Source: a virus (taxonomy: Duplodnaviria > Heunggongvirae > Uroviricota > Caudoviricetes). From it: 41,364 nucleotides of DNA. A program made the translations under genes and the position numbers. How positions within the stretch are numbered: the stretch's first letter is position 1; each line of letters opens with the position of its first letter. Below, one piece after another: positions 1 to 41,364 of the stretch. Location: IMG/VR virus record IMGVR_UViG_2909257012_000006, positions 1 through 41,364 of that record. One strand, given 5' to 3'. The notes below the pieces were generated by a model. It was not told where the DNA came from and searched no databases. It saw only the letters and a program-made list of their open reading frames with translations.

Positions 1-1158
1 ATGCTCACCGTTAAGCAGATTGAAGCAGCAAAGCCGAAAGAAAAACCATACCGCCTTCTCGATGGTAATGGCCTGTACCTTTATGTTCCTGTATCCGGGA
101 AAAAGGTATGGCAGCTTCGCTACAAGATTGACGGTAAGGAAAAAATACTGACCGTCGGAAAATATCCGCTTATGACTTTGCAGGAGGCAAGGGATAAAGC
201 ATGGACCGCGAGGAAAGACATCTCGGTTGGCATCGATCCGGTAAAAGCGAAAAAGGCTTCGTCTAATAACAATTCCTTTAGCGCCATTTACAAGGAATGG
301 TACGAGCACAAGAAGCAAGTATGGTCAGTAGGGTATGCGACTGAACTTGCCAAAATGTTTGATGACGACATTTTACCTATCATCGGCGGCCTTGAAATTC
401 AGGATATTGAGCCGATGCAACTGCTGGAAGTAATCCGCAGATTTGAAGATCGCGGTGCAATGGAGCGAGCAAATAAAGCCCGCAGAAGATGCGGCGAGGT
501 TTTCCGTTACGCTATTGTCACTGGTAGGGCTAAATATAACCCGGCACCTGACCTTGCTGACGCCATGAAGGGATACCGCAAGAAAAACTTCCCGTTTCTT
601 CCTGCAGACCAGATCCCGGCATTTAACAAAGCACTGGCAACATTTTCAGGAAGCATCGTATCGCTCATTGCGACCAAAGTTTTACGCTACACAGCCCTCA
701 GAACAAAAGAGCTTCGTTCCATGCTATGGAAGAACGTCGATTTTGAAAACAGGATTATCACCATCGACGCCAGTGTGATGAAGGGACGCAAAATTCATGT
801 GGTTCCTATGTCAGACCAGGTGGTTGAACTTCTCACTACGCTAAGCTCAATCACCAAACCAGTATCAGAGTTTGTTTTTGCCGGGCGCAACGATAAGAAG
901 AAGCCAATCTGCGAGAACGCGGTACTGCTTGTGATCAAACAAATCGGCTATGAGGGTCTGGAAAGCGGTCACGGATTCAGGCATGAATTCAGCACGATTA
1001 TGAACGAGCACGAATGGCCCGCTGATGCTATTGAAGTGCAACTGGCACATGCCAACGGCGGATCTGTGCGCGGGATTTACAACCATGCTCAGTATCTCGA
1101 TAAGCGCAGAGAAATGATGCAATGGTGGGCGGACTGGCTTGATGAAAAGGTGGAGTGA
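1..1158 (+). CDS. int: Tyrosine integrase, P4/IntS-like (argW-targeting type)
   Basis: 385-aa ORF; C-terminal HGFRHEF...AHANGGSVRGIYNH catalytic region; from recall near-identical to E. coli IntS; directly follows xis at window end. Confidence 0.93.
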   Translation: MLTVKQIEAAKPKEKPYRLLDGNGLYLYVPVSGKKVWQLRYKIDGKEKILTVGKYPLMTLQEARDKAWTARKDISVGIDPVKAKKASSNNNSFSAIYKEWYEHKKQVWSVGYATELAKMFDDDILPIIGGLEIQDIEPMQLLEVIRRFEDRGAMERANKARRRCGEVFRYAIVTGRAKYNPAPDLADAMKGYRKKNFPFLPADQIPAFNKALATFSGSIVSLIATKVLRYTALRTKELRSMLWKNVDFENRIITIDASVMKGRKIHVVPMSDQVVELLTTLSSITKPVSEFVFAGRNDKKKPICENAVLLVIKQIGYEGLESGHGFRHEFSTIMNEHEWPADAIEVQLAHANGGSVRGIYNHAQYLDKRREMMQWWADWLDEKVE

Positions 1159-1186
1159 ACAATCTTAAAAATCAATGAAAACATGC

Positions 1187-1218
1187 AAGGCCTGGCACTC
1201 AAGTTACAGGCCTTGCGC
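1187..1218. terminator. Perfect 10-bp inverted repeat hairpin (GCAAGGCCTG-N12-CAGGCCTTGC) between convergent int and tailspike; probable bidirectional terminator
   Basis: Seen directly; lies between 3' ends of convergent genes; moderately U-rich on - strand side, AT-rich flank. Confidence 0.45.
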
Positions 1219-1266
1219 ATACAATTTATCAACTAATAATTTAATTTTTTAAAATATCAATTAATT

Positions 1267-3450
1267 CTATCTAATCCTGAACATTACAATTGGAGCAGAG
1301 CCAGAAGATAAAGGGCCTGACCAATGGTATCTAATTCTGAAAGAAGACTCACTTGGAGTTCCGATAATTTCTATTGGACTTAAAGTTGCACCTTCTGCAG
1401 AACCAGCAGGTTGTCTAAACCCCAACACAGCAATCTGGTTTGGTGTTGGGGCATACAGAAAATTATGCTCAATATCAACCTCGTTAGATTCGCTACCTGT
1501 TGGGTTTGGCATATTCCACTCAATATAATCGTCAGTTGATTTACCATTTATTGAGTTTCCAACTGTTGCCATAATCGTCCACGTACACGTCCTGTTAAGG
1601 GCTGCCATTCTATCACCTAAAAACCTATTATAACCATTTGCGCCTGAAGTGATTAATCTTATATTCTCTGATGCACATGTGCCAATGCTGTTAAATCCAG
1701 TGCAATCAGAAGAAAGCCCCTTCGCAGTTATATCTACGCTGTTCGCAAAACAAATTGTTGTTGAATTTACTGCATCGCGAATAAGAGCAGAACCCGAAAA
1801 CAAATTATCACACGAACCTCTTATATTATTACCACCGCCGGATAAGTAACATAAATTTCCTTTTATCCTCTTGGATGTAAAAGTAACATTGTTATTGTCA
1901 CCAGTAACAGAAAGAAGCGAGGCTTTAATAGGGGCATTGTCACTCTGTAACTGACCAATTTGGTTTATTGTAACTACATTGTTGTTGCCTGATATAGCTA
2001 TCTGATACCCATCATCATCAATTGAAGGTGAATATCTTTGTGCTTTTATATTGATGTTAAGTGTCCAGATTGTACCGTTATCCAGAAGCATGTCGCGGAG
2101 AGGAGAAATTGAATCGCCAGTGTAGTTATCTGGCATTCTTCCACACGCCCTGGCTTCTGCGATGGCAACAACACCATGTGCCCCGTTGGTAAACCAGTAA
2201 CCACCTAAACTATTATCAACACACACGTGCCTCGCATTGAATCGGTTAACACCCAGCGTCTTAAATCCATAGCCATAATACACAGCATATACATGGATGT
2301 AATTTATATCGACATGTCCTGTATAAGGAGACTGATTATCAAGAACAATTCCATGACATGGTTCTCCGGGATAAAGAAGGCTTTGTTGGCTTGTTGCTGT
2401 TAATCTTGCGCTGTAAGGAGGAAGTCCACACGGGCCAAAAACAATATAATCTAGGTTAATATCACCTGGCCCCCTGAACACAACCCCCTCTCTCCCTGAA
2501 ATTCTTCCCGTTATCCTCACTTCAGAGGCGTGTTCCTGATTATCATGAAATGATCCATACCCCTCTGAATAGAGAGCATGTTCTGCAACATTATTAATCT
2601 CAACGTCAATGTGGTACATGCTGCCGAATATTTTAATGGCAGTTCCATAGTCATTGTTAACAGTGTCGCAAGTTCTCCATGAGTTTGTATCTCTTTGCAA
2701 GTCAAGATAATTACCATCAATGGTCATATCTTTTATGCTAAATCCATATGGCGCATCAGACAGATTTTCCACAACGCCAAAGCCATGTGTTTTAAATACA
2801 TCTGTATTACTACCTTTTTTAACATACAGAAATGTTGCTCTCTTTCCAGAGCCTTTATGATGAACGCCTGTATAAAGAATGATAGGAGAATCTATTAAAT
2901 AAACACCTGGAGGGTAAAATATTTCCCCGCCACCATTATTAAAAGCAGCTAATGCTGCGGCATTAATGGCATCAGAATCTGATGTCAATCCATCTGCTTT
3001 AGCTCCATAGTATTGAGGTGTTTTCCTGATTGCATCGTAAACCGTTGAAGCGCCGAAACCGATATATTTACTACCATCTGTACCGCCAATAAGTAATTTA
3101 AACTGATCCGGGTCATACTTCAGCACATTCGGAAAATAGAACTGCTGTGTACCATACGCATCATAAACAGCCATAGAATGGCCTTGCACGGTTACGAATT
3201 TGGCAATCTGTCCGTTATATACCGGATATCCAGCAGCGTTAATGATTATTGGTTGCGAAACAGGAACGTGAGAACCGTCTTCATTCTCCACATAAACCTG
3301 AATCTGGTTTTCAGGGTTTACCGGGTCAGTGTCAATTTTACCGATATAAATTTTGCCATTGGCATTTGCTTTAAACGAGCGAGCTAAAGTAAATAACTGA
3401 CTTGGTTGTGAAACAACAACGTTGTATAATTGTTCTGGCATAATAAACAT
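1267..3450 (-). CDS. Tailspike protein; P22-like N-terminal head-binding domain with a different receptor-binding domain
   Basis: 727 aa; N-terminus [37 protein letters not shown]...[13 protein letters not shown] matches recalled P22 gp9 head-binding domain; remainder diverges. Confidence 0.85.
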
Positions 3451-3463
3451 TCCGGAGAAAATA

Positions 3464-3964
3464 ATGAGTAAAAGACGTCACGAGGTAGTAACTCGGGAGC
3501 GCCTTATGGAGGTTCTCGATTACAATAAAGAAACAGGAATTTTCACTTGGAAAAAGAAATTAAGCGCCAGAGGTGCTGTTGGGAAAGTTGCTGGCACAAT
3601 TTCTTATGGATATAACGCAATTAATATTGATGGCGTAAGATATTTTGCACATAGACTTGCCTGGCTGTATGTATATGGCGAATGGCCCAAACAAGAGATT
3701 GACCACATTGATAGAAATAGAAGAAATAACGCAATCTCAAACCTTAGGGATGTCAGCAGAGTCGTAAACGCATTAAATGTCGGACCTCGAAATAGCAATG
3801 CTGGAATCAAGGGGGTAACTTTCTGTCAAGCCAGAAATCAATGGCAAGCTCAGATAAATGTCTCAGGTAAAAACATAACCCTTGGGAGATTCAACACCAT
3901 TGATGAAGCGGCTATAGCTTATAAGGCAGCAAACATGGTTGCTGACCATCTGTTGAGTAGGTAA
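3464..3964 (+). CDS. HNH endonuclease with AP2-like DNA-binding domain (homing-endonuclease-like), paralog of 25106..25597
   Basis: Motifs [13 protein letters not shown]...[17 protein letters not shown] and GIKGVTF; GGAG RBS 6 nt upstream of ATG at 3464. Confidence 0.75.
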
Positions 3965-4106
3965 TGTCTGTCATTTAATTTGCTCCAGATACAAGGAATC
4001 ACCGCAGCATGGCTACGGTTGGAATTTGTTACATACCTAAACGGTACGATTGTTGATTTGTACAGTGGGTTTTACGATGCCATTCCACCCATTTGGTGAG
4101 GCATTG

Positions 4107-4364
4107 ATGATGTACAGCAAATACGATGAGGCGCAGTTCCACTTGAGGCTTACACACGAGTTGCACGCTAAGATTAAGCAGCGTGCAAAAATGAATAACA
4201 GGTCTATCAATTCCGAAATTGTGGCTACGATGGAAGAATCACTCTCCAAACCATCACCTGTAAGCGGGTATCGTGATGAAGAAGAGAGGCTGGCCTCATT
4301 AATCTCGGAACGAGTAAAAGAAGTTGCGGCTGATATCCTTAGAAAAGAAAAAACCCGCGATTAA
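4107..4364 (+). CDS. mnt: Mnt-like ribbon-helix-helix repressor (Arc/MetJ family)
   Basis: FHLRLTHELHAKIKQRAKMNNRSINSEIV...SLSKPSPVSGYRDEEERLA resembles recalled P22 Mnt; start chosen at ATG with GGTGAGG RBS. Confidence 0.65.
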   Translation: MMYSKYDEAQFHLRLTHELHAKIKQRAKMNNRSINSEIVATMEESLSKPSPVSGYRDEEERLASLISERVKEVAADILRKEKTRD

Positions 4365-4375
4365 GCGGGTTTAGT
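4353..4375. terminator. Bidirectional rho-independent terminator (ACCCGC-GATTAA-GCGGGT) between convergent genes
   Basis: Hairpin with T-run on - strand side (TTTTTCTTTTCT); mnt-like stop codon lies in the loop. Confidence 0.55.
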
Positions 4376-4378
4376 TGG

Positions 4379-4600
4379 TTAGTTATCAAAAAGTCCGTAC
4401 GTTTCTTCTTCTTCAGGTGTAAGGGGAAGAATCTCTACTCTATCTATAGATACCTTTTCAATGTACCCATGAGGTCTACTTAAAATTAAAGCTCTCTCAT
4501 GCCACAGAACTCCAAGAATGTGATACCTTCCAGCATCGCCTTTTACCCTGGCTCTTCCTTTGATTCTTGGAGGCATAATGCCATATTTTTTCTTTGCCAT
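4379..4600 (-). CDS. Hypothetical protein, last gene of ant operon
   Basis: 73-aa ORF abutting upstream gene; no recognisable motif. Confidence 0.45.
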   Translation of the reverse strand: MAKKKYGIMPPRIKGRARVKGDAGRYHILGVLWHERALILSRPHGYIEKVSIDRVEILPLTPEEEETYGLFDN

Positions 4601-5328
4601 TATGCAACATTACTCCCATGAATCAGGTGTTGTAGTGCTTTAACACCTTCCGCATTGTAGCGGAATGCTTCCACCTGTTTGCTGGAATGCGCAGATTTAT
4701 CCAGGAAGAACTTCCCGTACTGCTCAGTTTTGAGGTTGTTTGCGTTAGCAATGCGACCAATCTTGTTGGCCGTTACTCCAAGCTGCTCTGCAACCTCCCC
4801 TGCTGAGTAGTAATGCTCTTCTATTGCCGGAAGAGGTATTGCATTAAAACCAACGAGCGGGTTGATTATACTTGCTGCCGCTGTCTGCTTTGCCTCAGGC
4901 GCAAGATTTGGCATCAGATCGAACAGATTGGTAACAGCTTCAACCGTCATTTTCAGTGTTCGCGCCTGGCGATACTCAACAAGTCCACTCGACGATTTAC
5001 CGCTTTTAATGTGCGCTTCTTGCATACTTTCAAGTTGGTCTACAAGTGAGCGGCGAACAGCTTTAGATTCACGAGCAGCCACTCGAAGGGCTTGCTTAAT
5101 TGACATAACAACTTTTTCAGAAGTTGTCTTGTTTGATTTTTGAACTACGAAAATTTCGTAGTGCTCACCTTCAAGTTCATCCTTAATGCGTGCAATAAAG
5201 TCGTTATTGCGAACTTCTTTTTCCCCGCACTGTCTACGAGCATGATTGACCATCTCTAACAGGTACTGGCTATCAATGGTTTTATCCGTGACAACGGATC
5301 CGATGTTTGCTACATTCTTAAAAGTCAT
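4600..5328 (-). CDS. Second antirepressor-like protein with C-terminal KilA-C/ANT domain
   Basis: C-terminal YSAGEVAEQLGVTANKIGRIANANNLKTEQYGKFF motif; ATG at 5328 has AGGA RBS (the track ORF starts at a TTG at 5415). Confidence 0.6.
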   Translation of the reverse strand: MTFKNVANIGSVVTDKTIDSQYLLEMVNHARRQCGEKEVRNNDFIARIKDELEGEHYEIFVVQKSNKTTSEKVVMSIKQALRVAARESKAVRRSLVDQLESMQEAHIKSGKSSSGLVEYRQARTLKMTVEAVTNLFDLMPNLAPEAKQTAAASIINPLVGFNAIPLPAIEEHYYSAGEVAEQLGVTANKIGRIANANNLKTEQYGKFFLDKSAHSSKQVEAFRYNAEGVKALQHLIHGSNVA

Positions 5329-5415
5329 TAGGCATTCCTTATGTGGTAGTAAGGGTGTGACATAGGCCGCCAGCAGCACACTGGCGGTTTTCTTTTGCGC
5401 CGTCCTGGGCACCAA

Positions 5416-6054
5416 TCAATGAATCCATTCCTCGCCGCGAAGTTTTGCCAGCATTGGCTGAGCGTTCTTTACGACAAAATTGTTGGGATCAAGATTCTTC
5501 ATTTCACGAAGAAGCGATTTCTTGGTTTCTTCTGACATGTAGCGAGTCTCATATGCAATATCGTAAATCCTTCCTGAAAGCTCAGAACCAATTTGCTTCA
5601 TTCCTGGGTAGATGTGTTTGCACATTTGTTGACTCTTCTCCATCCACAATTGTAAGTAGCAGAGATTAACCAGTTCTTCGTCAGTAAACTGTTTTGCAAT
5701 CGGTGAGCATTCTGCCTGCCGATCCAAAATATCCAGCACCCAGCGGCGGAACTCTTTGGCCTTGGGCGTAGAAGCAAACATCGCCACCAAGTGAGCGCCT
5801 CGGAGCGAGTAAACTCTGACCGATTTGTTACGTAAGCTATTGTTTATTCCGTTGACCTTCATATTGAGGGTCAATGACATTGAGTCGGAAAATTCGTCAG
5901 CATTACGGGCATAAATTTGGCTGATGGCATCAGTTTTTTTATAGCCGAGAGCCTTAGCTAGTTCGGCGGAGGTGAACCAGATAGACCCGCCCTCTGTTAC
6001 AGGGTTAAAAGTGAATCCTTGGAAGTTATAATCTGATTTTGCTACAATATTCAT
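5416..6054 (-). CDS. ant: Antirepressor with Bro-N domain
   Basis: Bro-N-like N-terminus FQGFTFNPVTEGGSIWFTSAELAKALGY; ATG at 6054 with AAGGA RBS; position downstream of arc. Confidence 0.65.
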   Translation of the reverse strand: MNIVAKSDYNFQGFTFNPVTEGGSIWFTSAELAKALGYKKTDAISQIYARNADEFSDSMSLTLNMKVNGINNSLRNKSVRVYSLRGAHLVAMFASTPKAKEFRRWVLDILDRQAECSPIAKQFTDEELVNLCYLQLWMEKSQQMCKHIYPGMKQIGSELSGRIYDIAYETRYMSEETKKSLLREMKNLDPNNFVVKNAQPMLAKLRGEEWIH

Positions 6055-6127
6055 GTTAGTTTCCTTGGGTACGGTTACTGACATAGAGGCCCGGTTTGTG
6101 TTCGCGCACTTCCGGGCTTCACTATTT

Positions 6128-6304
6128 TTACTGGGCATTAGCTCTTTCCTCTCTCAGGCTTTTAGCCAGTCGCTGCACAATCGCAGAGTTGATAGAAATT
6201 CCATCCATTTCAGCTACGCGTCTGATCTCCTCCTTCATTCGCGCTGGCAAACGAAGCTGGAAACTCTGACTTTTACGACCACTGTAAAGAACATCGCTCA
6301 TCAT
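6128..6304 (-). CDS. arc: Arc-like ribbon-helix-helix repressor
   Basis: SQSFQLRLPARMKEEIRRVAEMDGISINSAIVQRL resembles recalled P22 Arc; GGAG RBS before ATG at 6304. Confidence 0.65.
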   Translation of the reverse strand: MMSDVLYSGRKSQSFQLRLPARMKEEIRRVAEMDGISINSAIVQRLAKSLREERANAQ

Positions 6305-6320
6305 CAATATCTCCGTCATA

Positions 6321-6341
6321 ATGACATCACCATGATGTCAT
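6321..6341. promoter_or_regulatory. 21-bp palindrome ATGACATCA-CCA-TGATGTCAT in arc/mnt divergent control region; candidate operator
   Basis: Perfect 9-bp half sites seen directly; located between divergent RHH repressor genes. Confidence 0.4.
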
Positions 6342-6421
6342 GACACCATTATGATGCCATTGCTCATAATGTCAATATGATGCTACTGTGTTTTTTATTG
6401 CTCATATGCCTTGCGAATAAG

Positions 6422-6676
6422 AAAATGTCAGAAAAAGACGAATCAAATTTCATAGAAAGATTTACGGTTAGAATGCCTGACGGCATGCGTAGTGCTATTG
6501 CGGAAAGGGCTAAACGAAACGGTCGATCTATGAACTCAGAGATAGTTCAAATTCTTGAGGATGCGTTATCATCTGACGTCTCATCAGTAGACAAATCATT
6601 AGATCTTAAACAAATAAAATCTTTACTTGATAAAATTTCCAACGAGTTACTGGATAGAATCCCAAAAGACACATAA
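6422..6676 (+). CDS. Second RHH (Arc/Mnt-family) repressor, divergent from arc
   Basis: FTVRMPDGMRSAIAERAKRNGRSMNSEIVQIL RHH signature; start uncertain (weak RBS). Confidence 0.55.
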   Translation, partial: KMSEKDESNFIERFTVRMPDGMRSAIAERAKRNGRSMNSEIVQILEDALSSDVSSVDKSLDLKQIKSLLDKISNELLDRIPKDT

Positions 6677-6722
6677 CAAAACATTATCATCCGGTGTTCT
6701 GCTCAAAACTAAGGAGGTTGGT

Positions 6723-7112
6723 GTGAAGCAATTTCTTACTGCTATGTTCTTATTCATATCTTTTGGGGCTACAGCAGAGTGCTGGGTCGTTGGAGATATG
6801 CGCGGAATAAGCTATTCAGAACGAAATAATTTCCATCCGGAAGAAGATGGTTTTAGTGGAACATTCATCATTAAGACAAACGGTGAAGATGCCAGCATCA
6901 CATATTCTGGGACAGATGCGGGCGGCATGGCTTACAAAGCATTGTCTAAAAACTCCATCATAGGAATCGGCGCGAATGGCGAAACTCAACGCGTTATCGA
7001 CTCATGGGTAATACATCCTACTGGAACAGTTTTAATGTCAAAAACCATTTCTGGTTATGGGAATATGGATTCAACCAAAGCTTTTGTTGGAAAAGTAAAA
7101 AGAAAATGTTAA
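6723..7112 (+). CDS. Small secreted/periplasmic protein with N-terminal signal peptide (moron-like), co-transcribed with RHH gene
   Basis: AAGGAGG RBS 5 nt before GTG; N-terminus KQFLTAMFLFISFGATA then ECW (AxA cleavage motif). Confidence 0.55.
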   Translation: MKQFLTAMFLFISFGATAECWVVGDMRGISYSERNNFHPEEDGFSGTFIIKTNGEDASITYSGTDAGGMAYKALSKNSIIGIGANGETQRVIDSWVIHPTGTVLMSKTISGYGNMDSTKAFVGKVKRKC

Positions 7113-7136
7113 CGATTGAATCCAATTCCCCATACG

Positions 7137-8978
7137 TTACTGCTGTGTTGCCTCAGTAGCAAGCAGCGGCCTGATGGCATTTGCAGCGTTACTCAACGCT
7201 CTTTCATAGGCTGGTGTTCCTGCTTTGGTGTTTGCCAGACGTAAGAGCGCATTCCTTGCTGCTTTGGACTCATACAAGCGCATCATTGCACCGAAACCAG
7301 CCTCAAGCCCCATTGATACGCCAAGAGTCGCAGTTGCGCCAATCGTCCTTATCCTGTTGGCTTGCGATTGCCCCGTCTGAGTTACTACATTTGCGGTGTC
7401 TGACCTTGCTGTTTGCTGCAGAACTTCATGAAGAGCATCAAGTTCTTTCATGTGCTTTCCAGAAAAAATAGTGTTGTAAATTTCACCGCCTGACTGAGAT
7501 TTCAGCTTATTAACTTCAGTGATGAACTTGGCTGGAGAGTCACCGGCCTTTTCCGCTATTTTGCTGACGTAAGCTGCACGCATAGCATCTTTCCCTTTAT
7601 CATCCAGTGCGCTCCAGATTCGTTTCACGTCAGATGGTTTTCTGCTTAATACAACGGTATTTATAAGTTCAGGACTGGCTTCACTGCTTGCCTTGTTGAG
7701 TTTGTTAGCAATGTTTTTATTAAGCACCTTATTATAAACGTTTGCATAATCGGAATTTGCTTTAAGGTATTTTGCTGCGTCTGATGCACCGAGGTTTTTA
7801 GCAACTGCGTTACGAAGGTCTTTTGACATTGCATTCTCTACCATATTGGTAGCTGCTTTTGCCTGGTTGGGGAAGACCATAGCATCTCCCTGAACATTAG
7901 ATCTAAATGCTGTTCTGTGCTGACGCAAGAGATCAAACGTAACATCCAAATCAGTTGCAGGGTTTGCTAATTCTTCACGTAGGTTACGCAAGGATGTAAG
8001 CAGGCTTTGATTGGCAGACGTCCCAAGCCGTTCCTGTCTTGCGATCGCTGTATTCAGAGCATTCATGGTATTTGTGGTATCAACTGCGGCATTACCCATT
8101 TTATTGGTGACGTCATTGATAACAGCGCCAGCGGCATCCTTCCGCCCCCTTAACGTGGTGGTCAGAGATTTCACCACATCATCAGGGTTGTAATCACCAA
8201 AACGGTCAAAATAATTGCTTACCAGCTTACTACGCGTTGCATATTGCTCCGCACGCTTTGAACCTGTCCCTAGCAAAGCCCCCTCAGCATCCTGAGTAAG
8301 GCCACGAGTGAAAGCATTTTTCGGCGGGATAACATCAGATGTCATTGGTGTCACGCCCATCGATTCTGATGTGGCAATTTTCTTCGCCACTTCTGGCGCA
8401 ATATCACCTTTTATGGCCGTTATTCCACGCCCTATTCCCTTTGCTGCGGCGGAAAGAACACCCTGAGCGGCAAGGTTAACTCCGGCATTTTTAGCTGCAT
8501 TTTGTGCGAAATCGCCTTTCTGATTTGCGGCCTCTGCCAGTGATCCAATAGCCATGCTTCCTGCCGTTCCAACTCCTGGAACTAAATACCCACCAATTGT
8601 TTCACCGGCTTGTGCGTAGGGGTCTGTCGGTCGATCGACAGGGCGATAAACATCATCCAAAACCTTGGGGCCACCAAGCCCCTGGCTGATTGCATTAATC
8701 AGACTTGCGCCACCCTGCAATACGTCAAATGGTATGTTTACCAGACCACGACCAGCCTGTTCTGCAATTTGCCCTGCACTTTGACCACCAGTGAGCCAAT
8801 CGCCAGCTTGTTGCATCAATGATGGTTCTTCCCGTGTTGGTGCATTATTGGCCTGATTAACTGTTTGTTGCTGAACAGCCTGACCAGCAAAATACTCATC
8901 AATGGCGGTGCCAATATCTTCGGTGCTCGTACCATCAGGAAAGGTAAATGTCTTACCGTTTGCAGTTACTTTCATCAT
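7137..8978 (-). CDS. Ejection/internal virion protein, P22 gp16-like
   Basis: 613 aa; size and synteny match P22 gp16; Ala/Gly-rich. Confidence 0.7.
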
Positions 8979-10390: not shown

Positions 10391-10399
10391 GATTACCCC

Positions 10400-11092: not shown

Positions 11093-11094
11093 GG

Positions 11095-14309: not shown

Positions 14310-14350
14310 TGTCTTCTCCCAATAAAAATGGGGCCGAAGCCCCACCAAAA

Positions 14351-25826: not shown

Positions 25827-25868
25827 TATCATGCCGTTAATATGTTGCCATCCGTGGCAATCATGCTG

Positions 25869-29251: not shown

Positions 29252-29574
29252 TGATACCCTCTCTCACTTAATCGCCTCCACGCTTCGTTAAACTCTTCAC
29301 GAGTTGCGCCGGATTTTCTTTCTTCAAACATCATGCATTCGCTGATGTCTCCCCATGACTTTGGTCGCTTTTCAGCGAACAGATCATCCCATTCGAATAC
29401 CCAGCGGCCTGATTTTCGGTAGTGGTAAATGGTCAGCCATGTTGTGCTGTTCGCTGGATACCCATAGAGAACTTCGACTTTTTGATCACGGTCTTTATGC
29501 TTTTTCAGCAGGATAAAGCCAGCAACCAGCGAAGCTCCGGCAAGAATGACGATTGGAATTTGCCAGTCAGCCAC
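29248..29574 (-). CDS. Hypothetical membrane-anchored protein (ren position)
   Basis: N-terminal hydrophobic helix IPIVILAGASLVAGFILL then soluble domain; 108 aa. Confidence 0.5.
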   Translation of the reverse strand: MADWQIPIVILAGASLVAGFILLKKHKDRDQKVEVLYGYPANSTTWLTIYHYRKSGRWVFEWDDLFAEKRPKSWGDISECMMFEERKSGATREEFNEAWRRLSERGYQ

Positions 29575-32146: not shown

Positions 32147-32446
32147 TCAGAATTCCATCTGGATTTGTTCAGAACGCTCGGTCTTGCACACCGGGCGTTT
32201 TTTATTGGTGAGTCCATCAAGCGCATACTTAAAAGCCCTGCTAATCGGACTGATGTCTGATGCCATTCCGAAAGCACACAAGACCGAAGCAATAAACCTC
32301 CAGTCCGTTCTGCTTATCTTCGATTCATGACAGCCAATCATCTTTGCCAGACCGCGCTGTGTAAGCGTTGACAGGTTGATGAGTAAATCTGTTTCTGCGC
32401 GATCAACGTCGCGCTGTGATAGTTTGCTGTAACTTGTTTGTTCCAT
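32147..32446 (-). CDS. cII: CII-like transcriptional activator
   Basis: C-terminus [20 protein letters not shown] matches recalled lambda CII tail; 99 aa. Confidence 0.8.
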
Positions 32447-32510
32447 TTCTTACTATTTCCATAGGTAAATAATCACTAATACCCATCTTTCGATGAGTGC
32501 TTAATTAGTT

Positions 32511-32545
32511 ACCGCGTTGTCGGCGGTGCAGATTGATAAAGAGCG
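32511..32545 (-). promoter_or_regulatory. nutR (boxA CGCTCTTTA and P22-type boxB hairpin ACCGCCGACAACGCGGT)
   Basis: Read on - strand between cro and cII; boxB matches recalled P22 nutR. Confidence 0.65.
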
Positions 32546-32555
32546 GATCCGCTTA

Positions 32556-32771
32556 TTAAGCGGCTTTGTGTTCCGGCGGGAACACGTCATCAAGACTGAC
32601 TTTTGCGCCTAACTTGTTTAGGCACGCAACAAGAGCACGGCATGTTTTAAGGTCTGGGAAGCGACGACCAGATTCCCAATGTCCGATAGCTCCCTGTGTG
32701 CATCCAACTGCCTTAGCAAGTGTTGTTTGAGAGATATTCAGTGACTCTCGATATTTTCGTAGGTTGCTCAT
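32556..32771 (-). CDS. cro: Cro-like HTH repressor
   Basis: MSNLRKYRESLNISQTTLAKAVGCTQGAIGHWESGRRFP HTH; GGAGG RBS; divergent from cI. Confidence 0.75.
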   Translation of the reverse strand: MSNLRKYRESLNISQTTLAKAVGCTQGAIGHWESGRRFPDLKTCRALVACLNKLGAKVSLDDVFPPEHKAA

Positions 32772-32888
32772 ATGCCCTCCATAGTAACCATGAAACAATA
32801 ATACGATATGTACTTTTGGAATGCAAACAAAAAATACATCTTGTGCATGGATGGTTTTAGTACAGAGCGTAATAATAAGGATATGAAA
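32772..32888. promoter_or_regulatory. Divergent OR/pR/pRM control region between cro and cI
   Basis: 117-bp intergenic region between divergent repressor genes with partial inverted repeats; operators not resolved. Confidence 0.4.
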
Positions 32889-33542
32889 ATGAAATGGTAT
32901 GAACTGGCTAGATCCAGAATGAAAGAGCTCGGCATAACTCAAGAGAAGTTAGCTGAAGAGCTTGGTATGACGCAGGGTGGAATTGGTCACTGGTTGCGCG
33001 GATCTCGTCATCCATCTCTTGACGAGATTGGTGTGGTATTTAAATACCTTGGTATTGATAACGTCTCATTCAACCACGACGGTACATTTTCACCTGTTGG
33101 CGAATACTCATCTGCCCCCGTTAAAAAACAATATGAGTACCCTGTTTTTTCTCATGTTCAGGCCGGGATGTTCTCGCCTGAGCTTAGAACCTTTACCAAA
33201 GGTGATGCGGAGAGATGGGTTAGCACAACCAAAAAAGCCAGTGATTGTGCGTTTTGGCTTGAAGTTGAAGGTAATTCCATGACCGCGCCAACAGGATCCA
33301 AGCCAAGCTTTCCTGACGGGATGTTAATTCTCGTTGACCCTGAGCAGGCTGTTGAGCCAGGTGATTTCTGCATAGCCAGACTTGGTGGTGACGAGTTTAC
33401 CTTCAAGAAACTGATCAGGGATAGCGGTCAGGTGTTCCTACAACCACTAAACCCGCAATATCCAATGATCCCATGCAATGATAGCTGTTCCGTAGTAGGG
33501 AAAGTTATCGCCAGCCAGTGGCCTGAAGAGACATTTAGTTAA
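32889..33542 (+). CDS. cI: CI prophage repressor: novel N-terminal HTH domain fused to lambda-CI-type C-terminal S24 domain
   Basis: C-terminal ~130 aa ([39 protein letters not shown]...) near-identical to recalled lambda CI; N-terminal HTH differs. Confidence 0.9.
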
Positions 33543-33741: not shown

Positions 33742-33776
33742 GGCTCTTTAACTTCGATGGGGCGCTGACAAAGCGC
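33742..33776 (+). promoter_or_regulatory. nutL (boxA GGCTCTTTA and P22-type boxB GCGCTGACAAAGCGC)
   Basis: boxB identical to recalled P22 nutL boxB; located downstream of pL. Confidence 0.7.
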
Positions 33777-33804: not shown

Positions 33805-33887
33805 CGGTGTGTAGCTCAGCAGGTAGAGCGGATTCGTTGGCTAAGCCGTGGAATCGCGTCACCAGTTCAAGTCTGGTCACACCACCA
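33805..33887 (+). ncRNA. tRNA-like element with canonical acceptor, D and T arms but a 15-nt loop in place of the anticodon loop
   Basis: Hand fold: acceptor CGGTGTG/CACACCA (6/7 bp), D-arm GCTC-AGCAGGTA-GAGC, 5-bp stem GATTC/GAATC enclosing GTTGGCTAAGCCGTG, variable GCGTC, T-arm ACCAG-TTCAAGT-CTGGT; no encoded CCA in register. Confidence 0.45.
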
Positions 33888-33913: not shown

Positions 33914-34033
33914 ATGCTGGAAATTATCACCAACCCAATTCTCGGTGGGGCAATCATCACTTTCGCAATCGGCATCGGATTCACTATCTGGTCTGAAGTA
34001 GATGACTGGATGTGGGAGCGCAAAAACAAATAA
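33914..34033 (+). CDS. 39-aa single-pass membrane peptide
   Basis: GGAG RBS 8 nt upstream; MLEIITNPILGGAIITFAIGIGFTIWSEVDDWMWERKNK has one hydrophobic helix and charged tail. Confidence 0.4.
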   Translation: MLEIITNPILGGAIITFAIGIGFTIWSEVDDWMWERKNK

Positions 34034-34073: not shown

Positions 34074-34388
34074 ATGACGGTAATCGTATACGGAAAATCA
34101 ACATTTGCAGGAAATGCCAAAACTCGCCGTCATGAGCGGCGCAGAAAGCTGGCTATCGAGCGTGATTCCATCTGCAACATCATCGATTCGATCTTCGGCA
34201 CAGACAGTGAGGAAGCTGTTCAGGAAGAACCGAGAAAGCGTTTAAGCCTTTCTGAAAAAGCAATATCACTCGGCATCATTAGTAAATCAAATACAGATGC
34301 GAATGGCGGAAGCGTTTGCCTGCCCGAAGTTGCACTGTATGCTGCTGGTTACAGGTCAATGAAATCAATTACTGCGAGATATAAATGA
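34074..34388 (+). CDS. N-type antiterminator (P22 gene 24-like)
   Basis: MTVIVYGKSTFAGNAKTRRHERRRKLAIERD arginine-rich motif matches recalled P22 gp24; GGAGG RBS. Confidence 0.85.
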   Translation: MTVIVYGKSTFAGNAKTRRHERRRKLAIERDSICNIIDSIFGTDSEEAVQEEPRKRLSLSEKAISLGIISKSNTDANGGSVCLPEVALYAAGYRSMKSITARYK

Positions 34389-35122: not shown

Positions 35123-35207
35123 TGGCACTAACAACTGAAGTGGTTTACTGAATTTGGCCACCTGAACAGAGGTGATATGCTCACCTCAGAACAACACAGG
35201 TGCCATA

Positions 35208-36355
<1,148 letters not shown>

Positions 36356-36405
36356 CTCGGTGGCCAGTTTTTGTTGACCACTTCAAACAGAATAAACACT
36401 GCACT

Positions 36406-36433
36406 GTGTATTCATTCCAACGAGTGAATACAC
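36406..36433. repeat. 9-bp-stem inverted repeat GTGTATTCA-N10-TGAATACAC
   Basis: Seen directly just right of IS911 copy 2; no T-run; function unknown. Confidence 0.35.
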
Positions 36434-36495
36434 GGAGCAATGTCGCTCGTAACTAAACAGGAGCCGACTTGTTCTGATTATTGGAAATCTTCTTT

Positions 36496-36519
36496 GCCCT
36501 CCAGTGTGAGGGCTTTTTT
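36496..36519 (+). terminator. Rho-independent terminator
   Basis: GCCCTC-cagtgt-GAGGGC followed by TTTTTT. Confidence 0.65.
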
Positions 36520-36585
36520 ATATGCATACCAATAACGCTTCACTCGAGGCGTTTTCGTTATGCAATCAAACAGAAGGAGCATCCT

Positions 36586-36756
36586 ATGCAACAGTTCGCT
36601 ATTGCAGGGGCGGCATCGGTTCGCCCTTTCAACCCGATTTTATCGGTACAGCATTCACGAAAAAATATTTTAACCGGAGCAGACTTTAAACAACCAAGAA
36701 TGAAAAGCTTGCTCGAAAAGCTTTGGGATATTTTGAAACAACAAGGCCGTCCATGA
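36586..36756 (+). CDS. Small hypothetical protein
   Basis: 56 aa from ATG with AAGGAG RBS. Confidence 0.5.
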   Translation: MQQFAIAGAASVRPFNPILSVQHSRKNILTGADFKQPRMKSLLEKLWDILKQQGRP

Positions 36757-36860
36757 GTTTTACAGATAACTGGTCAGACGAAGAATTCATTCGTCTGATG
36801 AACAAAATGCTCAATCAGCACAAAGAACAGGAGAAAGATGATGATTCTGACTCTGAATGA
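36753..36860 (+). CDS. Small acidic hypothetical protein (35 aa)
   Basis: ATGA overlap with upstream stop; below track length cutoff; weak support. Confidence 0.35.
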   Translation: MSFTDNWSDEEFIRLMNKMLNQHKEQEKDDDSDSE

Positions 36861-37149
36861 TAAGCGTGAAATATCGCAAATAATCGCAAGTTTTACTGAT
36901 GAAGATTACGAACGAATCAACAGTGAAGTTAATCGCCTCTGCAAACGTTGCGACCCAATAAGCGAAATGCTTCGCTCATATAAACCAGATGAACACACTA
37001 AGGACGCTATCGACTGGCTGGAAGATTATGACTGTAACTATCAGGAAAAAGCCGCTGAATGGTTCTGGGATGCAATAACCGAAAGAGTTAAGGCTGAATA
37101 TGCCTTCGCAATATTCAAACGCAGACATATTTATGGAGAAGCTGCATGA
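36838..37149 (+). CDS. Hypothetical protein upstream of recT
   Basis: 103-aa ORF; stop overlaps recT start. Confidence 0.5.
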   Translation: MMILTLNDKREISQIIASFTDEDYERINSEVNRLCKRCDPISEMLRSYKPDEHTKDAIDWLEDYDCNYQEKAAEWFWDAITERVKAEYAFAIFKRRHIYGEAA

Positions 37150-38048
37150 GCAATATCGTTGAATTCGTTAAACAGCAAGAGCAGTTATTCTGCGGAGCAT
37201 TGACTGAACAGACGGTGACATGGGCTAAGGAAAGCCAGTTTGCAATTCAGTATTTCCAGAAAAATGATTACCTGGCTAAAACGGCACTGGCAAATCCAAC
37301 CAGCGCACAGAACGCCATCATCAATGTTGCGGCGATCGGCATCACCTTAAACCCGGCCAGCAAACTTGCTTATCTAGTTCCGCGCGACGGCATGGTTTGC
37401 CTTGATATCAGCTATATGGGATTACTTCACCTTGCACAGTCGACAGGATCAATTAAGTGGGGGCAATGCAAACTGGTGTACTCAAACGACACCTATGAAT
37501 CAAACGGCCTTGATTCAGCACCAACCCACAAATACAACGCATTTGGTGAGCGAGGCTCTATTGTTGGTGGTTATTGTACGGTTAAAACAGCAGATGGTGA
37601 CTACCTCACTGAAGAAATGAGTCTGGCAGAAATTAAAGCAGTGGAAGCAACGAGCAAGGCAAAGAATGGACCGTGGAAAACATTCTGGGAAGAGATGGCA
37701 CGTAAAACAATAGTTAAACGCGCCAGCAAATACTGGCCTAAAGCCCAGCGACTGGATAATGCCATTCACCTGCTTAACGAAGATGAAGGTATGCATCAGG
37801 AACCAGTTATGCCGCACAAATCAGAGGAAGATATCCGCGAAGATGAACGGAAACGCCAGCAGGAAATAATGGGAAAAGCACAACTTCTTTGTGATGAAAT
37901 GGCTCAGGCAGAAAACATGGATGATTTGAAGCGATATTTTGCAGAAGCATATCGCCTGACATCTGGAATGAAATTGCAGCAGAACGTACAAGCCATTTAC
38001 ATAGAATGCAAAGCGAAACTGGAGGTTGCCAGTGAGCAAACTATATGA
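37146..38048 (+). CDS. recT: RecT-family single-strand annealing recombinase
   Basis: 300 aa; RecT-type core (GSIVGGYCTVKTADGDY...WKTFWEEMARKTIVKR). Confidence 0.85.
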   Translation: MSNIVEFVKQQEQLFCGALTEQTVTWAKESQFAIQYFQKNDYLAKTALANPTSAQNAIINVAAIGITLNPASKLAYLVPRDGMVCLDISYMGLLHLAQSTGSIKWGQCKLVYSNDTYESNGLDSAPTHKYNAFGERGSIVGGYCTVKTADGDYLTEEMSLAEIKAVEATSKAKNGPWKTFWEEMARKTIVKRASKYWPKAQRLDNAIHLLNEDEGMHQEPVMPHKSEEDIREDERKRQQEIMGKAQLLCDEMAQAENMDDLKRYFAEAYRLTSGMKLQQNVQAIYIECKAKLEVASEQTI

Positions 38049-38514
38049 AATAGCCAATGAATACGCAAAATTGATGGATTCAGATTTAGAGCCAGAGATG
38101 ATTGCTGACACAATAGAAGGCATGGAAGGAGAATTTACCGATAAAATAGAGCAACTTCTTGCCATTATTAAAAATGAATCTGGTTATGCTGAACGCCTCA
38201 AGGACGAGGCAAAATCACTGAATGAACGAGCCGCAGTAATTCAAAATAAGATTGACAGCATTATGGCGTATATAGCGTCATCGCTTGAAATGGTTGGCAA
38301 GAAAAAGATTCGAGCGGGTATTCACCAGGTAACAATCCGCAAACCGTCAGAAACTGTAGAAATCATCGACTCAAGCGCCCTTCCTCCTGAATACGTTGAG
38401 TTTGAAACGACAATTAAAGCCGACAAACTGGCAATCAAACACCAACTAAAAGCAGGAATAAATATCCCCGGCGCTCAACTCAAAGTTGGGAAACCTTCAC
38501 TTCTTATCAAATAA
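38032..38514 (+). CDS. Gp157-like protein (Sipho_Gp157 family)
   Basis: GTG start with GGAGG RBS; coiled-coil-like N-terminus; family assignment from recall, moderate. Confidence 0.5.
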   Translation: MSKLYEIANEYAKLMDSDLEPEMIADTIEGMEGEFTDKIEQLLAIIKNESGYAERLKDEAKSLNERAAVIQNKIDSIMAYIASSLEMVGKKKIRAGIHQVTIRKPSETVEIIDSSALPPEYVEFETTIKADKLAIKHQLKAGINIPGAQLKVGKPSLLIK

Positions 38515-38525
38515 CGGTATCGCCT

Positions 38526-38840
38526 ATGAAAAAGACTCCATGGGAGAAATGGGAAGTCGATTTCTTACGCGAAGTAGCGGCGACAATGCCAGTTGAAGTT
38601 ATCGCAGAAAAACTGGAAAGGACTGAAAAAGCAGTAATGGCGAAAGCAACAAGGATTGGCGCTGACATTGTTAGCCGACTTCGTGGAAGACGCTGGACAA
38701 GAGCCGAAGTATCACTTTTCGGTAAGTTCTCCGCAGAAGAAATAGCAATTGCAACCTGCCGCTCAATTTATTCAGTAAGAGCTATGCGATACAAGCTAAA
38801 AAAACTCGATGAAGAAAGAGCAGGCATACGAATAAATTAA
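38526..38840 (+). CDS. Hypothetical protein
   Basis: 104-aa ORF in operon context. Confidence 0.5.
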
Positions 38841-38856
38841 CAAAGAGGAATTTACC

Positions 38857-39021
38857 ATGAGAGGACTTGCATACAATCCCGGCATTCTTCCGGCAGAAAT
38901 GATTATTCGCCAACGCGTAAAGCCAATGCCATCGAGAGAGGAATTGCTTAAGAGAAATTCTTTTCCATCAGTGAATCAAAACAAATATCTGAATGCGATG
39001 TGGAGGAGTGGGAAGAAATGA
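38857..39021 (+). CDS. Small hypothetical protein (54 aa)
   Basis: AGAGGA RBS; stop overlaps next start (ATGA); below track cutoff. Confidence 0.35.
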
Positions 39022-39527
39022 AACAAATGTCACTAATTGAGATGGATGGATTTCTGAAAGGTAAATGCATCCCACGAGATTTAAAGGTTAACGAAACAAA
39101 CGCTGAATATCTTGTCCGTAAGTTCGGTGAACTTGAATCAAAACTGGAAACGGCGTTGCGGGAGTGTCGTTCTGCTGGAATCACGATTGATAACCTTGAG
39201 GCCAAGTGCGCGGCGCTGGCAGCGGAGAGTGTGGGGATGAAGAAGTTCTGCAAAGACGCTGCATTCGATGCCGATTACGAAGCAGAGCTAGGTATGGAGC
39301 GTGGTGGATTCAGTGATGCGCTTAACGAAATCAAAACCCCAGCCACCGATGCTTTCCTGTCTGAAGTGCGGGCGCAGGGCGTGGAGATGCTGGCAAAAAA
39401 TCATCAGAGTATCGTCAATGCACTTAAGGGAGATTCTTTATTTTCTGATGGTGAATACCTGCATGCAGCTATTGTTTCCGCAGCTGTATATTTCGCTGCA
39501 GAGCTTCGCAAAGGAGGCAACCAGTGA
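39018..39527 (+). CDS. Hypothetical protein
   Basis: 170-aa ORF, translationally coupled to neighbours. Confidence 0.5.
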
Positions 39528-39778
39528 GTAATTCAGCACGACTACAGCTTGGTTTTTCACCGCTATCAAAAACTATCATGCTGGCAAAAATGCGCTATGT
39601 TGAAGGTGGACGTATGCGCGTTGGCAATGATCCAGGTCGTGATGTTACCAATGAGGCTGCTCAATTGGTGTGGCGACTGGTCATGGCTGAAGGTGGTGAG
39701 ATCGCGTGGGAGCTGGATGATGGTTCTCGCATGGTGTTGAAGGCAGAAAAGCAGGAGGCAACCAGTGAGCAAGATTGA
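39524..39778 (+). CDS. Hypothetical protein
   Basis: 84-aa ORF, overlapping stops/starts. Confidence 0.45.
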   Translation: MSNSARLQLGFSPLSKTIMLAKMRYVEGGRMRVGNDPGRDVTNEAAQLVWRLVMAEGGEIAWELDDGSRMVLKAEKQEATSEQD

Positions 39779-40454
39779 TTATCAGGCACTGCGTGCTAAG
39801 GCAGAAAAAGCAACGTGTGGCGAGTGGTCGCTCGAATATGGAGAGAGCCGATTTGATGGTGATGATGCGCTAATTCATCGTGAAGTTGCTGGATATATTC
39901 CCATTTGCAGAATTGAAGGAGCGCATCCAGAAAGCGGTTTCGATGAAGATTTCCAAATGGAACAGCAGGCCAATGCTGAATTCATCGCCGCAGCCAATCC
40001 GGCTACCGTCTTGGCACTGCTGGATGAACGGGAAAGAAACCAGCAATACATAAAACACCGCGACCAGGAGAACGAGGAGATTGCGCTTACGGTTGGGAAG
40101 CTGCGCGTTGAGCTGGAAGCGGCAAAAAAACGCATAGCAGAACCGGAAGCCGAACCTGTAAGCCAAACTTACAAGTTGCACGAGCTATCGGGCAACTCTC
40201 CGGTAACTCCGGATGGTTGGATAAGCTGTAGTGAGCGAATGCCAGAAATGGGAGAGCGACAATGCTATGTGTTAGCAGCTGACTTTAAAAACAACTACCC
40301 ACCAAACATCCCCAACACTCAGGTCGGCGTATATGTCGACTGGTTTAATGATGGCAATCCAACTTGGGATGACGGTGATGGCGAAGACCTGTATCTCAAA
40401 GAGGTAACCCACTGGATGCCTCTACCAGAACCGCCTCGATTAAAGGAGCTATAA
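39765..40454 (+). CDS. Ead/Ea22-like protein with C-terminal DUF551-type motif
   Basis: C-terminal THWMPLPEPP motif; 229 aa; common lambdoid early-region family. Confidence 0.6.
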   Translation: MSKIDYQALRAKAEKATCGEWSLEYGESRFDGDDALIHREVAGYIPICRIEGAHPESGFDEDFQMEQQANAEFIAAANPATVLALLDERERNQQYIKHRDQENEEIALTVGKLRVELEAAKKRIAEPEAEPVSQTYKLHELSGNSPVTPDGWISCSERMPEMGERQCYVLAADFKNNYPPNIPNTQVGVYVDWFNDGNPTWDDGDGEDLYLKEVTHWMPLPEPPRLKEL

Positions 40455-40568
40455 TAGTGAACTATTATATCTATTTGTATTAAAAGAGTTTTTATAAAAT
40501 AAATCTTCCAAAGCATGTAAAAACACTGTTAATCTTAACGTGTGTGAAACGTGAAGAGAGGTGTTGAA

Positions 40569-40850
40569 ATGAGCATTCATGATTTGTGTGAAGATCAAGA
40601 GCAATGGGCTATGCAGACCCTTATGGGATCAGGAGTTCTTGCAAGGTGCAGAATCCATAACGATGTAATTTTAGACAGCGGAAATGATGCTTCTTCTGCT
40701 TATAAATTAGGAACTTACCTATATCAAAAAGATAATAGCTGCAACTTATTCAATACTCTTACTGAAGCCCGCGACGCAATAAAGGATGCATATGAATCGT
40801 ATTGTGGGATTGATGATTGCCCACAATGCTCAAAATACATTGACGATTAA
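40569..40850 (+). CDS. Hypothetical Cys-containing protein
   Basis: 93 aa from internal ATG; CPQC motif. Confidence 0.45.
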   Translation: MSIHDLCEDQEQWAMQTLMGSGVLARCRIHNDVILDSGNDASSAYKLGTYLYQKDNSCNLFNTLTEARDAIKDAYESYCGIDDCPQCSKYIDD

Positions 40851-40938
40851 TAATATGAACAAGTAACTATCCTCGCACTCGCGGGGATTTCTTTTATCTG
40901 AACTCGCTACGGCGGGTTTTGTTTTATGGAGATGATAA

Positions 40939-41106
40939 ATGCACTTTCGAGTCACAGGTGAATGGAATGGAGAGCCATTCAACAGAGTTATCGAAGCAGA
41001 GAACATCAATGACTGCTATGACCACTGGATGCTATGGGCGCAGATAGCGCATGCAGACATAACCAATATTCGAATTGAAGAACTGAAAGAACACCAAGCC
41101 GCCTGA
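40939..41106 (+). CDS. Small hypothetical protein (55 aa)
   Basis: GGAG RBS 7 nt upstream; stop lies in terminator loop; below track cutoff. Confidence 0.4.
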   Translation: MHFRVTGEWNGEPFNRVIEAENINDCYDHWMLWAQIAHADITNIRIEELKEHQAA

Positions 41107-41121
41107 TGGCGGTTTTTTATT
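41096..41121 (+). terminator. Rho-independent terminator upstream of xis-int
   Basis: CCGCC-tgat-GGCGG followed by TTTTTTATT. Confidence 0.65.
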
Positions 41122-41125
41122 ACCT

Positions 41126-41145
41126 GATTTGCAGGTTCGATTCCC
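41126..41145. other. tRNA T-arm-like segment (TTGCAGGTTCGATTCC), candidate att core or relic
   Basis: 16-mer matches recalled E. coli argW T-stem/loop; located upstream of xis next to IntS-type integrase; downstream bases do not complete a tRNA 3' end. Confidence 0.35.
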
Positions 41146-41163
41146 TATTCGGAGATAGCACTC

Positions 41164-41364
41164 ATGCAACACGAACTACAGCCTGATTCACTGGTTGATT
41201 TGAAATTCATCATGGCCGATACTGGCTTCGGTAAAACCTTCATCTATGACCGGATTAAGTCCGGCGACCTGCCAAAAGCCAAAGTTATCCACGGGCGAGC
41301 AAGATGGTTATATCGTGACCATTGTGAATTCAAAAATAAGCTCTTAAGCCGCGCCAATGGGTAA
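41164..41364 (+). CDS. xis: AlpA/Xis-type excisionase or transcriptional regulator
   Basis: 66 aa; DLKFIMADTGFGKTFIYDRIKSGDLP HTH typical of AlpA family; stop abuts int start across the window boundary. Confidence 0.75.
   Translation: MQHELQPDSLVDLKFIMADTGFGKTFIYDRIKSGDLPKAKVIHGRARWLYRDHCEFKNKLLSRANG

Follow-up and report, generated by a model that had tools for sequence, protein, structure and literature searches.

The 41,364-nucleotide stretch of DNA analyzed here, the whole of which we call the window (IMG/VR record IMGVR_UViG_2909257012_000006, positions 1 to 41,364), begins on the first base of an integrase gene (int) and ends on the last base of an excisionase gene (xis), and the question it raises is whether these two ends truly adjoin. 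The first-pass annotation took the window to be a complete genome in its circular form, with the xis stop abutting the int start. We find that it is very probably the whole coding span of a single temperate P22-like podovirus of Escherichia coli/Shigella, whose full genome of 41,613 bp was opened at the phage attachment site (attP) and trimmed there by 249 bp. The phage belongs to the genus Lederbergvirus, with HK620, Sf6 and CUS-3 as its relatives.

The int/xis module and the position of attP

The features at the two ends of the window are as follows.

1..1158, plus strand: int, an IntS-type tyrosine integrase of 385 amino acids (Pfam Arm-DNA-bind_3, Phage_int_M and Phage_integrase); the first gene of the prophage-order map
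1185..1216, no strand: hairpin in the int/tailspike spacer, inverted repeat GCAAGGCCTG...CAGGCCTTGC; the only feature of the spacer
1267..3450, minus strand: tailspike gene (Pfam Head_binding plus pectate-lyase-like domains), 100% identical to the tailspike of the GN04171 prophage
41164..41364, plus strand: xis, the TorI recombination directionality factor of 66 amino acids, with its TAA stop ending at base 41364; the last gene of the prophage-order map

Module identities were tested by protein and nucleotide alignment against lambda, P22, Sf6 and HK620, with CUS-3 in addition, and a lack of match refers to a threshold of E<1e-5. The Int protein, whose ATG stands at base 1, is 99% identical to those of HK620 and Sf6 and 100% identical to those of CUS-3 and to IntS of GN04171. 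Xis is identical at 66/66 residues to E. coli TorI of prophage KplE1 (PDB 1Z4H), and 100% identical to HK620 hkaC and Sf6 gene 18; NCBIfam holds no TorI model. Neither int nor xis has a match in lambda or P22. These alignments place int and xis in the IntS/TorI module known from KplE1, HK620 and Sf6, and not in one of the lambda/P22 type. The recombination module shared by KplE1, HK620, Sf6 and CUS-3 has an unusual layout in which attL overlaps the int promoter and in which int and the directionality factor gene are transcribed separately and are uncoupled (Panis et al., PMC2951348).

The position of attP differs accordingly between the two types of record. The HK620 virion record has int at 50..1207, the attP core at 1368..1383 and hkaC at 1457..1657, and the Sf6 virion record has int at 16781..17938, the core at 18099..18114 and gene 18, the xis homologue, at 18188..18388, such that in both genomes 249 bp separate the stop of the xis homologue from the int ATG and the core lies inside this interval. 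The lambda and P22 records have attP downstream of int and a xis gene that overlaps int. A scan of the window for the core CTGCAGGGGACACCA, allowing up to two mismatches, had no match.

The missing segment is present in an otherwise identical genome. Logan contig SRR10977282_4871 (from a public read assembly, 25,982 bp; the part compared is locus L038), which was found through its exact tailspike protein, matches window 13441..1 over 13,441 bp and window 41364..36359 over 5,006 bp, with 0 mismatches in either match. Between the window's two ends it carries 249 bp, made up of the xis stop, ~73 nt, the core TCTGCAGGGGACACCA, ~160 nt and the int ATG, in the layout seen in HK620 and Sf6; the 16-nt core equals the 3' end of argW, a tRNA-Arg gene, and the ~160-nt part holds the int promoter. 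The contig terminates 30 nt into one of two insertion sequence (IS) copies described below (copy B), and its length is the sum 30+4976+249+20697+30, from which it follows that it spans from IS copy to IS copy through xis, attP and int. It has no branch to host flanks. The same IS-bearing genome therefore exists with xis joined to int through attP, and the spacer in this identical contig shows that the true genome is 41,613 bp and that the window's ends are not contiguous. The proposal of a complete circular genome is thus borne out as to the full gene set, the absence of host DNA and the existence of an attP-joined form, but not as to the ends, which coincide with the int start at base 1 and the xis stop at base 41364 and yet in the real genome are separated by 249 bp containing attP. 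The ends coincide exactly with a start codon and a stop codon, which points to trimming at the limits of coding sequences and not to a natural junction.

Gene order in integrated relatives

Because attP lies between xis and int, the window's linear order, with int first and xis last, is the prophage order in the IntS/TorI family. By published work on this family, IntS would recombine the attP core with the 3' end of argW. Given an attP between xis and int, integration would put int at one end of the prophage, beside argW and yfdC, and would place torI/xis at the opposite end, beside dsdC; excision would need TorI.

The integrated prophage of E. coli GN04171 has the order yfdC, tRNA-Arg (argW), 161 bp, intS, tailspike gene and so on to torI, followed by ~70 bp with the core CTGCAGGGGACACCA and then dsdC, and window 1-4027 is 99.85% identical to it. 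The same argW-int-tailspike layout occurs in 5/5 of the places shown that carry the window's antirepressor gene (loci L019-L023), and also in loci L016, L018 and L035. In P22-like prophages with another integrase type (L036, L037 and L039), the tailspike gene directly abuts host bio genes.

Within the window int and the tailspike gene are convergent and 108 bp apart, so that the adjacency originally noted is real. Its reading as a sign of the circular attP form followed lambda/P22 logic and fails, since integrated relatives beside argW and yfdC show the same adjacency. The 108-bp spacer is 100% identical in the integrated GN04171 prophage and is therefore not an att site or a recombination junction; a consensus terminator scan was empty, since its hairpin has no T run. 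The GN04171 record places its tailspike start at the equivalent of window 3441, giving 724 rather than 727 amino acids. Since the window order is the prophage order, it is uninformative as to whether the sequenced molecule was free or integrated. We note two wider consequences: for IntS/TorI phages, which are common at argW among prophages of E. coli, Shigella and Salmonella, the lambda rule that int beside tail genes means a circle does not hold, and a sequence running exactly from an int ATG to a xis stop is a trimmed, prophage-ordered genome without its att site.

State of the source molecule

Two accounts of the source molecule, as free phage DNA or as an integrated prophage, are possible. 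In the first, the window derives from an assembly of free phage, either virion or circular, which was linearised at attP or given a start at int and afterwards cut back to coding-sequence boundaries. We put this at about an even chance. Contig SRR10977282_4871, an identical genome in attP-joined form broken only at the IS copies, speaks for it, as does the fact that some records of phages in this group, that of CUS-3 among them, run from attL to attR; it leaves the loss of the 249 bp unexplained, however, and no phage record reaches 80% cover of either window segment searched (best 58% and 46%).

In the second account, the window was cut from a prophage integrated at argW, for example by a prophage caller trimming to the first and last viral genes, with argW/yfdC and dsdC lying beyond its ends. 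Its probability seems to us a little short of even. Integrated relatives, taken from intS start to torI stop, have exactly this order and these end points; the nearest relative, GCA_025593435.1, is integrated at this place; and both 1.25-kb IS copies are fully resolved, as in a finished assembly. Against this, the only dataset found with the exact IS-bearing genome shows the attP-joined form with no host-flank branch, and in the set of 5,426 complete E. coli genomes, window 1-25000 is covered to 83% by three, no genome reaches 80% of 22000-41364 and none holds the whole window. An integrated source is moreover compatible with the explanation of the window as a coding span opened at attP and trimmed, and would differ just in the state of the molecule.

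That the window is instead a complete circle, its xis stop truly abutting the int start and attP lying elsewhere, such as in the int/tailspike spacer, is highly improbable: the window does end on the xis stop and the int start, holds no host DNA, and lambda and P22 do have attP downstream of int, but the core is nowhere in the window, the proposed spacer is unchanged in an integrated prophage, in the identical contig an attP-bearing stretch of 249 bp parts the two ends, int and xis belong to the IntS/TorI type, and a natural deletion reaching exactly from stop codon to start codon is implausible.

Several observations weigh against the explanation that we favor, that of a trimmed coding span opened at attP. 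Besides the limited cover found among phage records and complete E. coli genomes, a 33-mer across the exact IS junction had 0 matches in viral_contigs and genome_contigs; the content of the first 7,286 bases of SRR10977282_4871 follows from its total size alone; and run SRR10977282, named in no paper searched, could be virion DNA, an induced culture or something else.

Virion, terminase and immI-like modules

The trimmed coding span that we favor has the full set of virion genes typical of P22 (portal, coat, gp4, gp10, needle gp26, ejection proteins gp7, gp20 and gp16, and a head-binding tailspike, by Pfam and tblastn), and its genes follow the lambdoid order of early-left, immunity, replication, nin, Q, lysis and late modules. 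The map of open reading frames (ORFs) is colinear with HK620 and with the GN04171 prophage, and there are no host genes inside the window. The left part of the map contains the following features.

3422..3964, plus strand: HNH endonuclease moron (Pfam HNH_3 plus AP2), between the tailspike gene and immI
4379..6676, both strands: immI-like region, with ORFs 4379..4600 and 4600..5415 (minus strand), antirepressor, Arc and a divergent Mnt-like repressor
5416..6138, minus strand: antirepressor (Pfam Bro-N plus P22_AR_C)
6128..6319, minus strand: Arc (Pfam Arc), 42% identical to P22 Arc
6377..6676, plus strand: Mnt-like repressor (Arc/FitA-like ribbon-helix-helix), 57% (partial) identical to P22 Mnt
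7137..13669, minus strand: ejection proteins gp16, gp20 and gp7, then gp14, needle gp26 and gp10 (tblastn against P22, Sf6, HK620 and CUS-3; Pfam of identical genes in relatives)
13679..18805, minus strand: head assembly genes gp4, a small ORF, coat, scaffold and portal, of CUS-3 type (Pfam P22_portal and P22_CoatProtein)
18807..20222, minus strand: terminase TerL (Pfam Terminase_3), 99% identical to Sf6 and CUS-3
20219..20644, minus strand: terminase TerS (Pfam Sf6_terminase), 88% identical to Sf6 and HK620, 100% to GN04171 and 30% to CUS-3

The Pfam families P22_Tail-4, Phage_stabilise, P22_gp7, Inj_translocase and Phage_P22_gp16 are those recorded for identical genes in a relative (locus L021). 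The head genes are 96-100% identical to those of CUS-3 overall, and 97-100% for gp4, coat, scaffold and portal, whereas portal, scaffold, coat and gp4 have only 29-56% protein identity to their counterparts in Sf6, HK620 and P22. The terminase is of the Sf6 type, as had been proposed, on the evidence of both TerL and TerS and of the Sf6_terminase match. Of the headful (pac) packaging of P22-like phages, with its circularly permuted, terminally redundant virion DNA, only the terminase families (Sf6_terminase and Terminase_3) are seen in the window. The designation of the immI region as P22-type is right for its layout, in which mnt is divergent from arc-ant, but the identities of Arc and Mnt to the P22 proteins are low and a Bro-N domain replaces P22_AR_N.

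Lysis, replication, immunity and recombination modules

The remaining modules of the right part of the map are these.

23301..26492, minus strand: lysis and late control genes Rz, R, S, an HNH moron and Q (alignment to lambda, Sf6 and P22)
25106..25597, minus strand: HNH_3 plus AP2 endonuclease moron, between Q and S
26489..29574, minus strand: nin region, including RusA and NinB (alignment and Pfam)
28007..28597, minus strand: MT-A70 methyltransferase of the nin region (Pfam)
29650..31975, minus strand: replication genes P (DnaB-like helicase) and O, with origin iterons at 31488-31588 (direct repeats D1)
32147..33542, both strands: immunity region, with cII (minus strand), nutR, cro (minus strand) and cI
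32511..32544, minus strand: nutR, differing from P22 nutR at 2/34 positions, outside boxA and boxB
32847..33542, plus strand: cI, residues 94-230 (the last ~137) nearly identical to the lambda CI C-terminal domain
33743..33776, plus strand: nutL of P22 type, boxA and boxB identical to P22, with 2/34 mismatches, in the spacer
34074..34388, plus strand: N antiterminator of P22 gp24 type (Pfam N_peptide)
37146..38514, plus strand: RecT recombinase and a Gp157-family protein (Pfam RecT, PF03837, and Sipho_Gp157), in place of Erf/Abc

Q is 100% and S and R are 98% identical to the lambda proteins, and window segments 23626-25106 and 25790-26499 have 95-97% DNA identity to lambda, so that the lambda-type Q-S-R assignment stands for these three genes; the neighboring Rz is instead of Sf6/P22 type, with identities of 98% to Sf6, 95% to P22 and 59% to lambda. 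Among the replication proteins, P has 99% identity to its counterparts in HK620 and Sf6, and O has 98% to that of HK620. A look-up of the MT-A70 methyltransferase gave further integrated mosaics only and no middle contig from SRR10977282.

The CI repressor joins its lambda-like C-terminal domain, recognized already from the sequence alone, to an N-terminal helix-turn-helix domain that is divergent from lambda. The arginine-rich motif of N, GNAKTRRHERRRKLAIERD, is identical to that of P22 and the first 43 residues match gp24 save at two positions, which, with the near-identity of the two nut sites, upholds the P22-type assignment of N/nut. The replacement of Erf by RecT is likewise confirmed by the PF03837 match, no Erf being present, and neither RecT nor the Gp157-family protein has a homologue in lambda, P22, Sf6 or HK620.

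Taken together, most modules of the lambda/P22/Sf6 mosaic proposed by the first-pass annotation hold on alignment, but that description missed the CUS-3 head, the Sf6/P22-type Rz, the Sf6/HK620-type int and xis, the HK620-type O and P, and two IS911-like copies. The phage is an ordinary new mosaic within the well-known HK620/Sf6/CUS-3 group, and its mosaicism is of the kind expected there.

We also note that the early region of the window, which begins with the lysis genes and ends with the 55-amino-acid ORF before xis, recurs at 99.4% identity in E. coli EC20 (L025, NZ_CM169481.1 149769-188236), where it is joined to siphovirus head and tail genes of the lambda type and to a xis-int, also of lambda type, beside torS. 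This is a recent exchange between podovirus and siphovirus backbones, and a textbook example of lambdoid module exchange.

IS911-like insertions

A perfect inverted repeat of 1,258 nt in the window resolves into two identical 1,250-bp IS911-like elements.

20701..21950, minus strand: IS911-like copy A, between a DUF2560 gene and terS, with target duplication GTT (20698-20700 and 21951-21953)
35136..36385, plus strand: IS911-like copy B, in the pL operon 27 bp after an ORF, with target duplication AAC (35133-35135 and 36386-36388)

The elements have the features of IS911, namely terminal inverted repeats beginning TGAAGTGG (25/36 positions match), orfA and orfB, and 3-bp target duplications, and an A6G -1 frameshift motif lies at IS position 324 inside the orfA/orfB overlap. 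IS3-family OrfA and OrfB transposase models match both copies; the annotated IS911 of Sf6 is 94.9% identical to them in nucleotides and 96% in protein. Empty sites are found in relatives, for copy A in L001 and for copy B in L016. Both copies are simple, intergenic insertions, co-oriented with the phage transcript that crosses them. Read in IS orientation, the two share the target duplication AAC and also the two preceding bases (ACAAC), a coincidence with a chance of ~1 in 1,000, which may reflect a target preference.

Two other readings of the IS pair were rejected. The target duplications cannot settle whether the 13-kb segment between the inverted copies has itself been inverted, both being AAC in IS orientation, but the gene order, colinear with HK620 and GN04171, shows no such inversion. 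A composite transposon has no support, each copy having its own duplication and its own empty site in relatives. The copies add 2.5 kb of DNA, and yet the attP-joined form was found, which suggests that excision or replication is still possible.

A tRNA-like gene and a fragment of argW

Three small elements lie in the pL operon and just upstream of xis.

33805..33886, plus strand: tRNA-like gene of 82 nt with an abnormal anticodon arm, between nutL and N (called by ARAGORN as tRNA-Pro(tgg))
33914..34033, plus strand: 39-codon ORF for a hydrophobic, membrane-like peptide, MLEIITNPILGGAIITFAIGIGFTIWSEVDDWMWERKNK, directly after the tRNA-like gene
41129..41144, plus strand: argW T-arm 16-mer TTGCAGGTTCGATTCC, an exact copy of a host tRNA-Arg segment just upstream of xis, equal to L001 3810-3825

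A whole-window Rfam search at the gathering threshold gave no match, its speed filters having hidden a real tRNA hit; in a local search of a 301-nt sub-region the tRNA-like gene scores 38.2 bits with the Rfam tRNA model, above the gathering score. It keeps the acceptor stem, D arm and T arm, with a C·A mismatch at position 1-72, and in the predicted fold the 7-nt anticodon loop is replaced by 15 nt that form an extra helix. The ARAGORN call of an ordinary tRNA-Pro was rejected because of this replacement. The gene occurs in 1/5,426 complete E. coli genomes, that of EC20, where it has the PGAP label 'tRNA-OTHER', as well as in one phage record (unannotated) and in nine IMG/VR contigs, always just after a P22-type nutL. 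Its position between nutL and N implies that pL would transcribe it, as one of the earliest phage RNAs. Only a single position varies across nine viral contigs, and the gene is too conserved for a test of covariation. That the gene works as a tRNA mimic or decoy, and is not just the remnant of a decayed tRNA, seems improbable; a mimic, if it is one, might counter a tRNA-binding enzyme or a host defence that targets tRNAs. L016 has the block 33813-34069 and the GN04171 prophage lacks it, so that it behaves as an inserted moron.

The argW 16-mer matches exactly and once, against 0 matches expected from shuffled sequence. Downstream of torI lies the attP core, and the two pieces joined give the 3' half of argW without a gap, torI standing between them; this suggests that torI lies within a longer and older attP derived from the tRNA. 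In the CUS-3 GenBank record the 16-mer is labelled as the attL/attR core, in which case torI would fall outside the prophage; neither the HK620 and Sf6 records nor the work on KplE1 agrees with this. In a related prophage (L011, GCA_002244095.1 KZ269147.1, 10596-20282), a second integrase comes directly after torI and is followed by P4-like satellite genes (Phage_P4_cII, Ogr_Delta, primase and Phage_cap_P2), which suggests that a phage and a satellite occupy the same att region in tandem.

Comparison with known systems

HK620 (AF335538 / NC_002730), also a Lederbergvirus, resembles the window in gene order, in Int (99%) and hkaC (100%), and in the layout of xis, 249 bp with the core, and int. 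Its Q, S and R are 99-100% identical, O and P 98-99%, and gp10, gp14 and gp26 93-99%. It differs in its portal, scaffold, coat and gp4 (33-56% or no match), in its immunity region and N, in having a Sak4-type recombinase instead of RecT, and in lacking any IS. It also has an O-antigen modification gene between the tailspike gene and int, which the window does not.

Sf6 (AF547987) shares Int (99%), TorI (100%), TerL (99%), TerS (88%), Rz (98%) and P (99%) with the window, and, like the window's phage, it has attP between xis and int and carries an IS911; the single Sf6 copy is inside ninG, however, whereas the two in the window are intergenic. Sf6 is further unlike the window in its phage 21-type Q, its Erf, its different head module and its oac gene.

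CUS-3 (CP000711), a K1-specific P22-like prophage, is close to the window in Int (100%) and in gp4, coat, scaffold, portal and TerL (97-100%), and its record has the same prophage order, from attL, int and tailspike through to attR, ending at the 16-mer upstream of the place that torI has in the window. It has an endosialidase tailspike, a TerS only 30% identical, Erf, and a different immunity region and replication genes, and its Q of 172 amino acids has no match to the 207-amino-acid Q of the window.

The cryptic prophage KplE1 (CPS-53) of E. coli K-12 has a TorI identical to the window's, and its IntS-type integrase, integration at argW and overlap of attL with the int promoter are described (PMC2951348). 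It is a defective remnant without immunity or virion genes, whereas the window has a full phage gene set.

Finally, the argW prophage of E. coli GCA_025593435.1 (JAOSCE010000001.1; loci L016, L021 and L046) differs from the window in being integrated between yfdC and dsdC, in being without both IS911-like copies, in having an IS1 near the equivalent of window position 39080, and in an int-tailspike segment that is 97.6% identical. Across window 3967-16138 and 30093-41364, except for the IS, the two are 99.98-100% identical.

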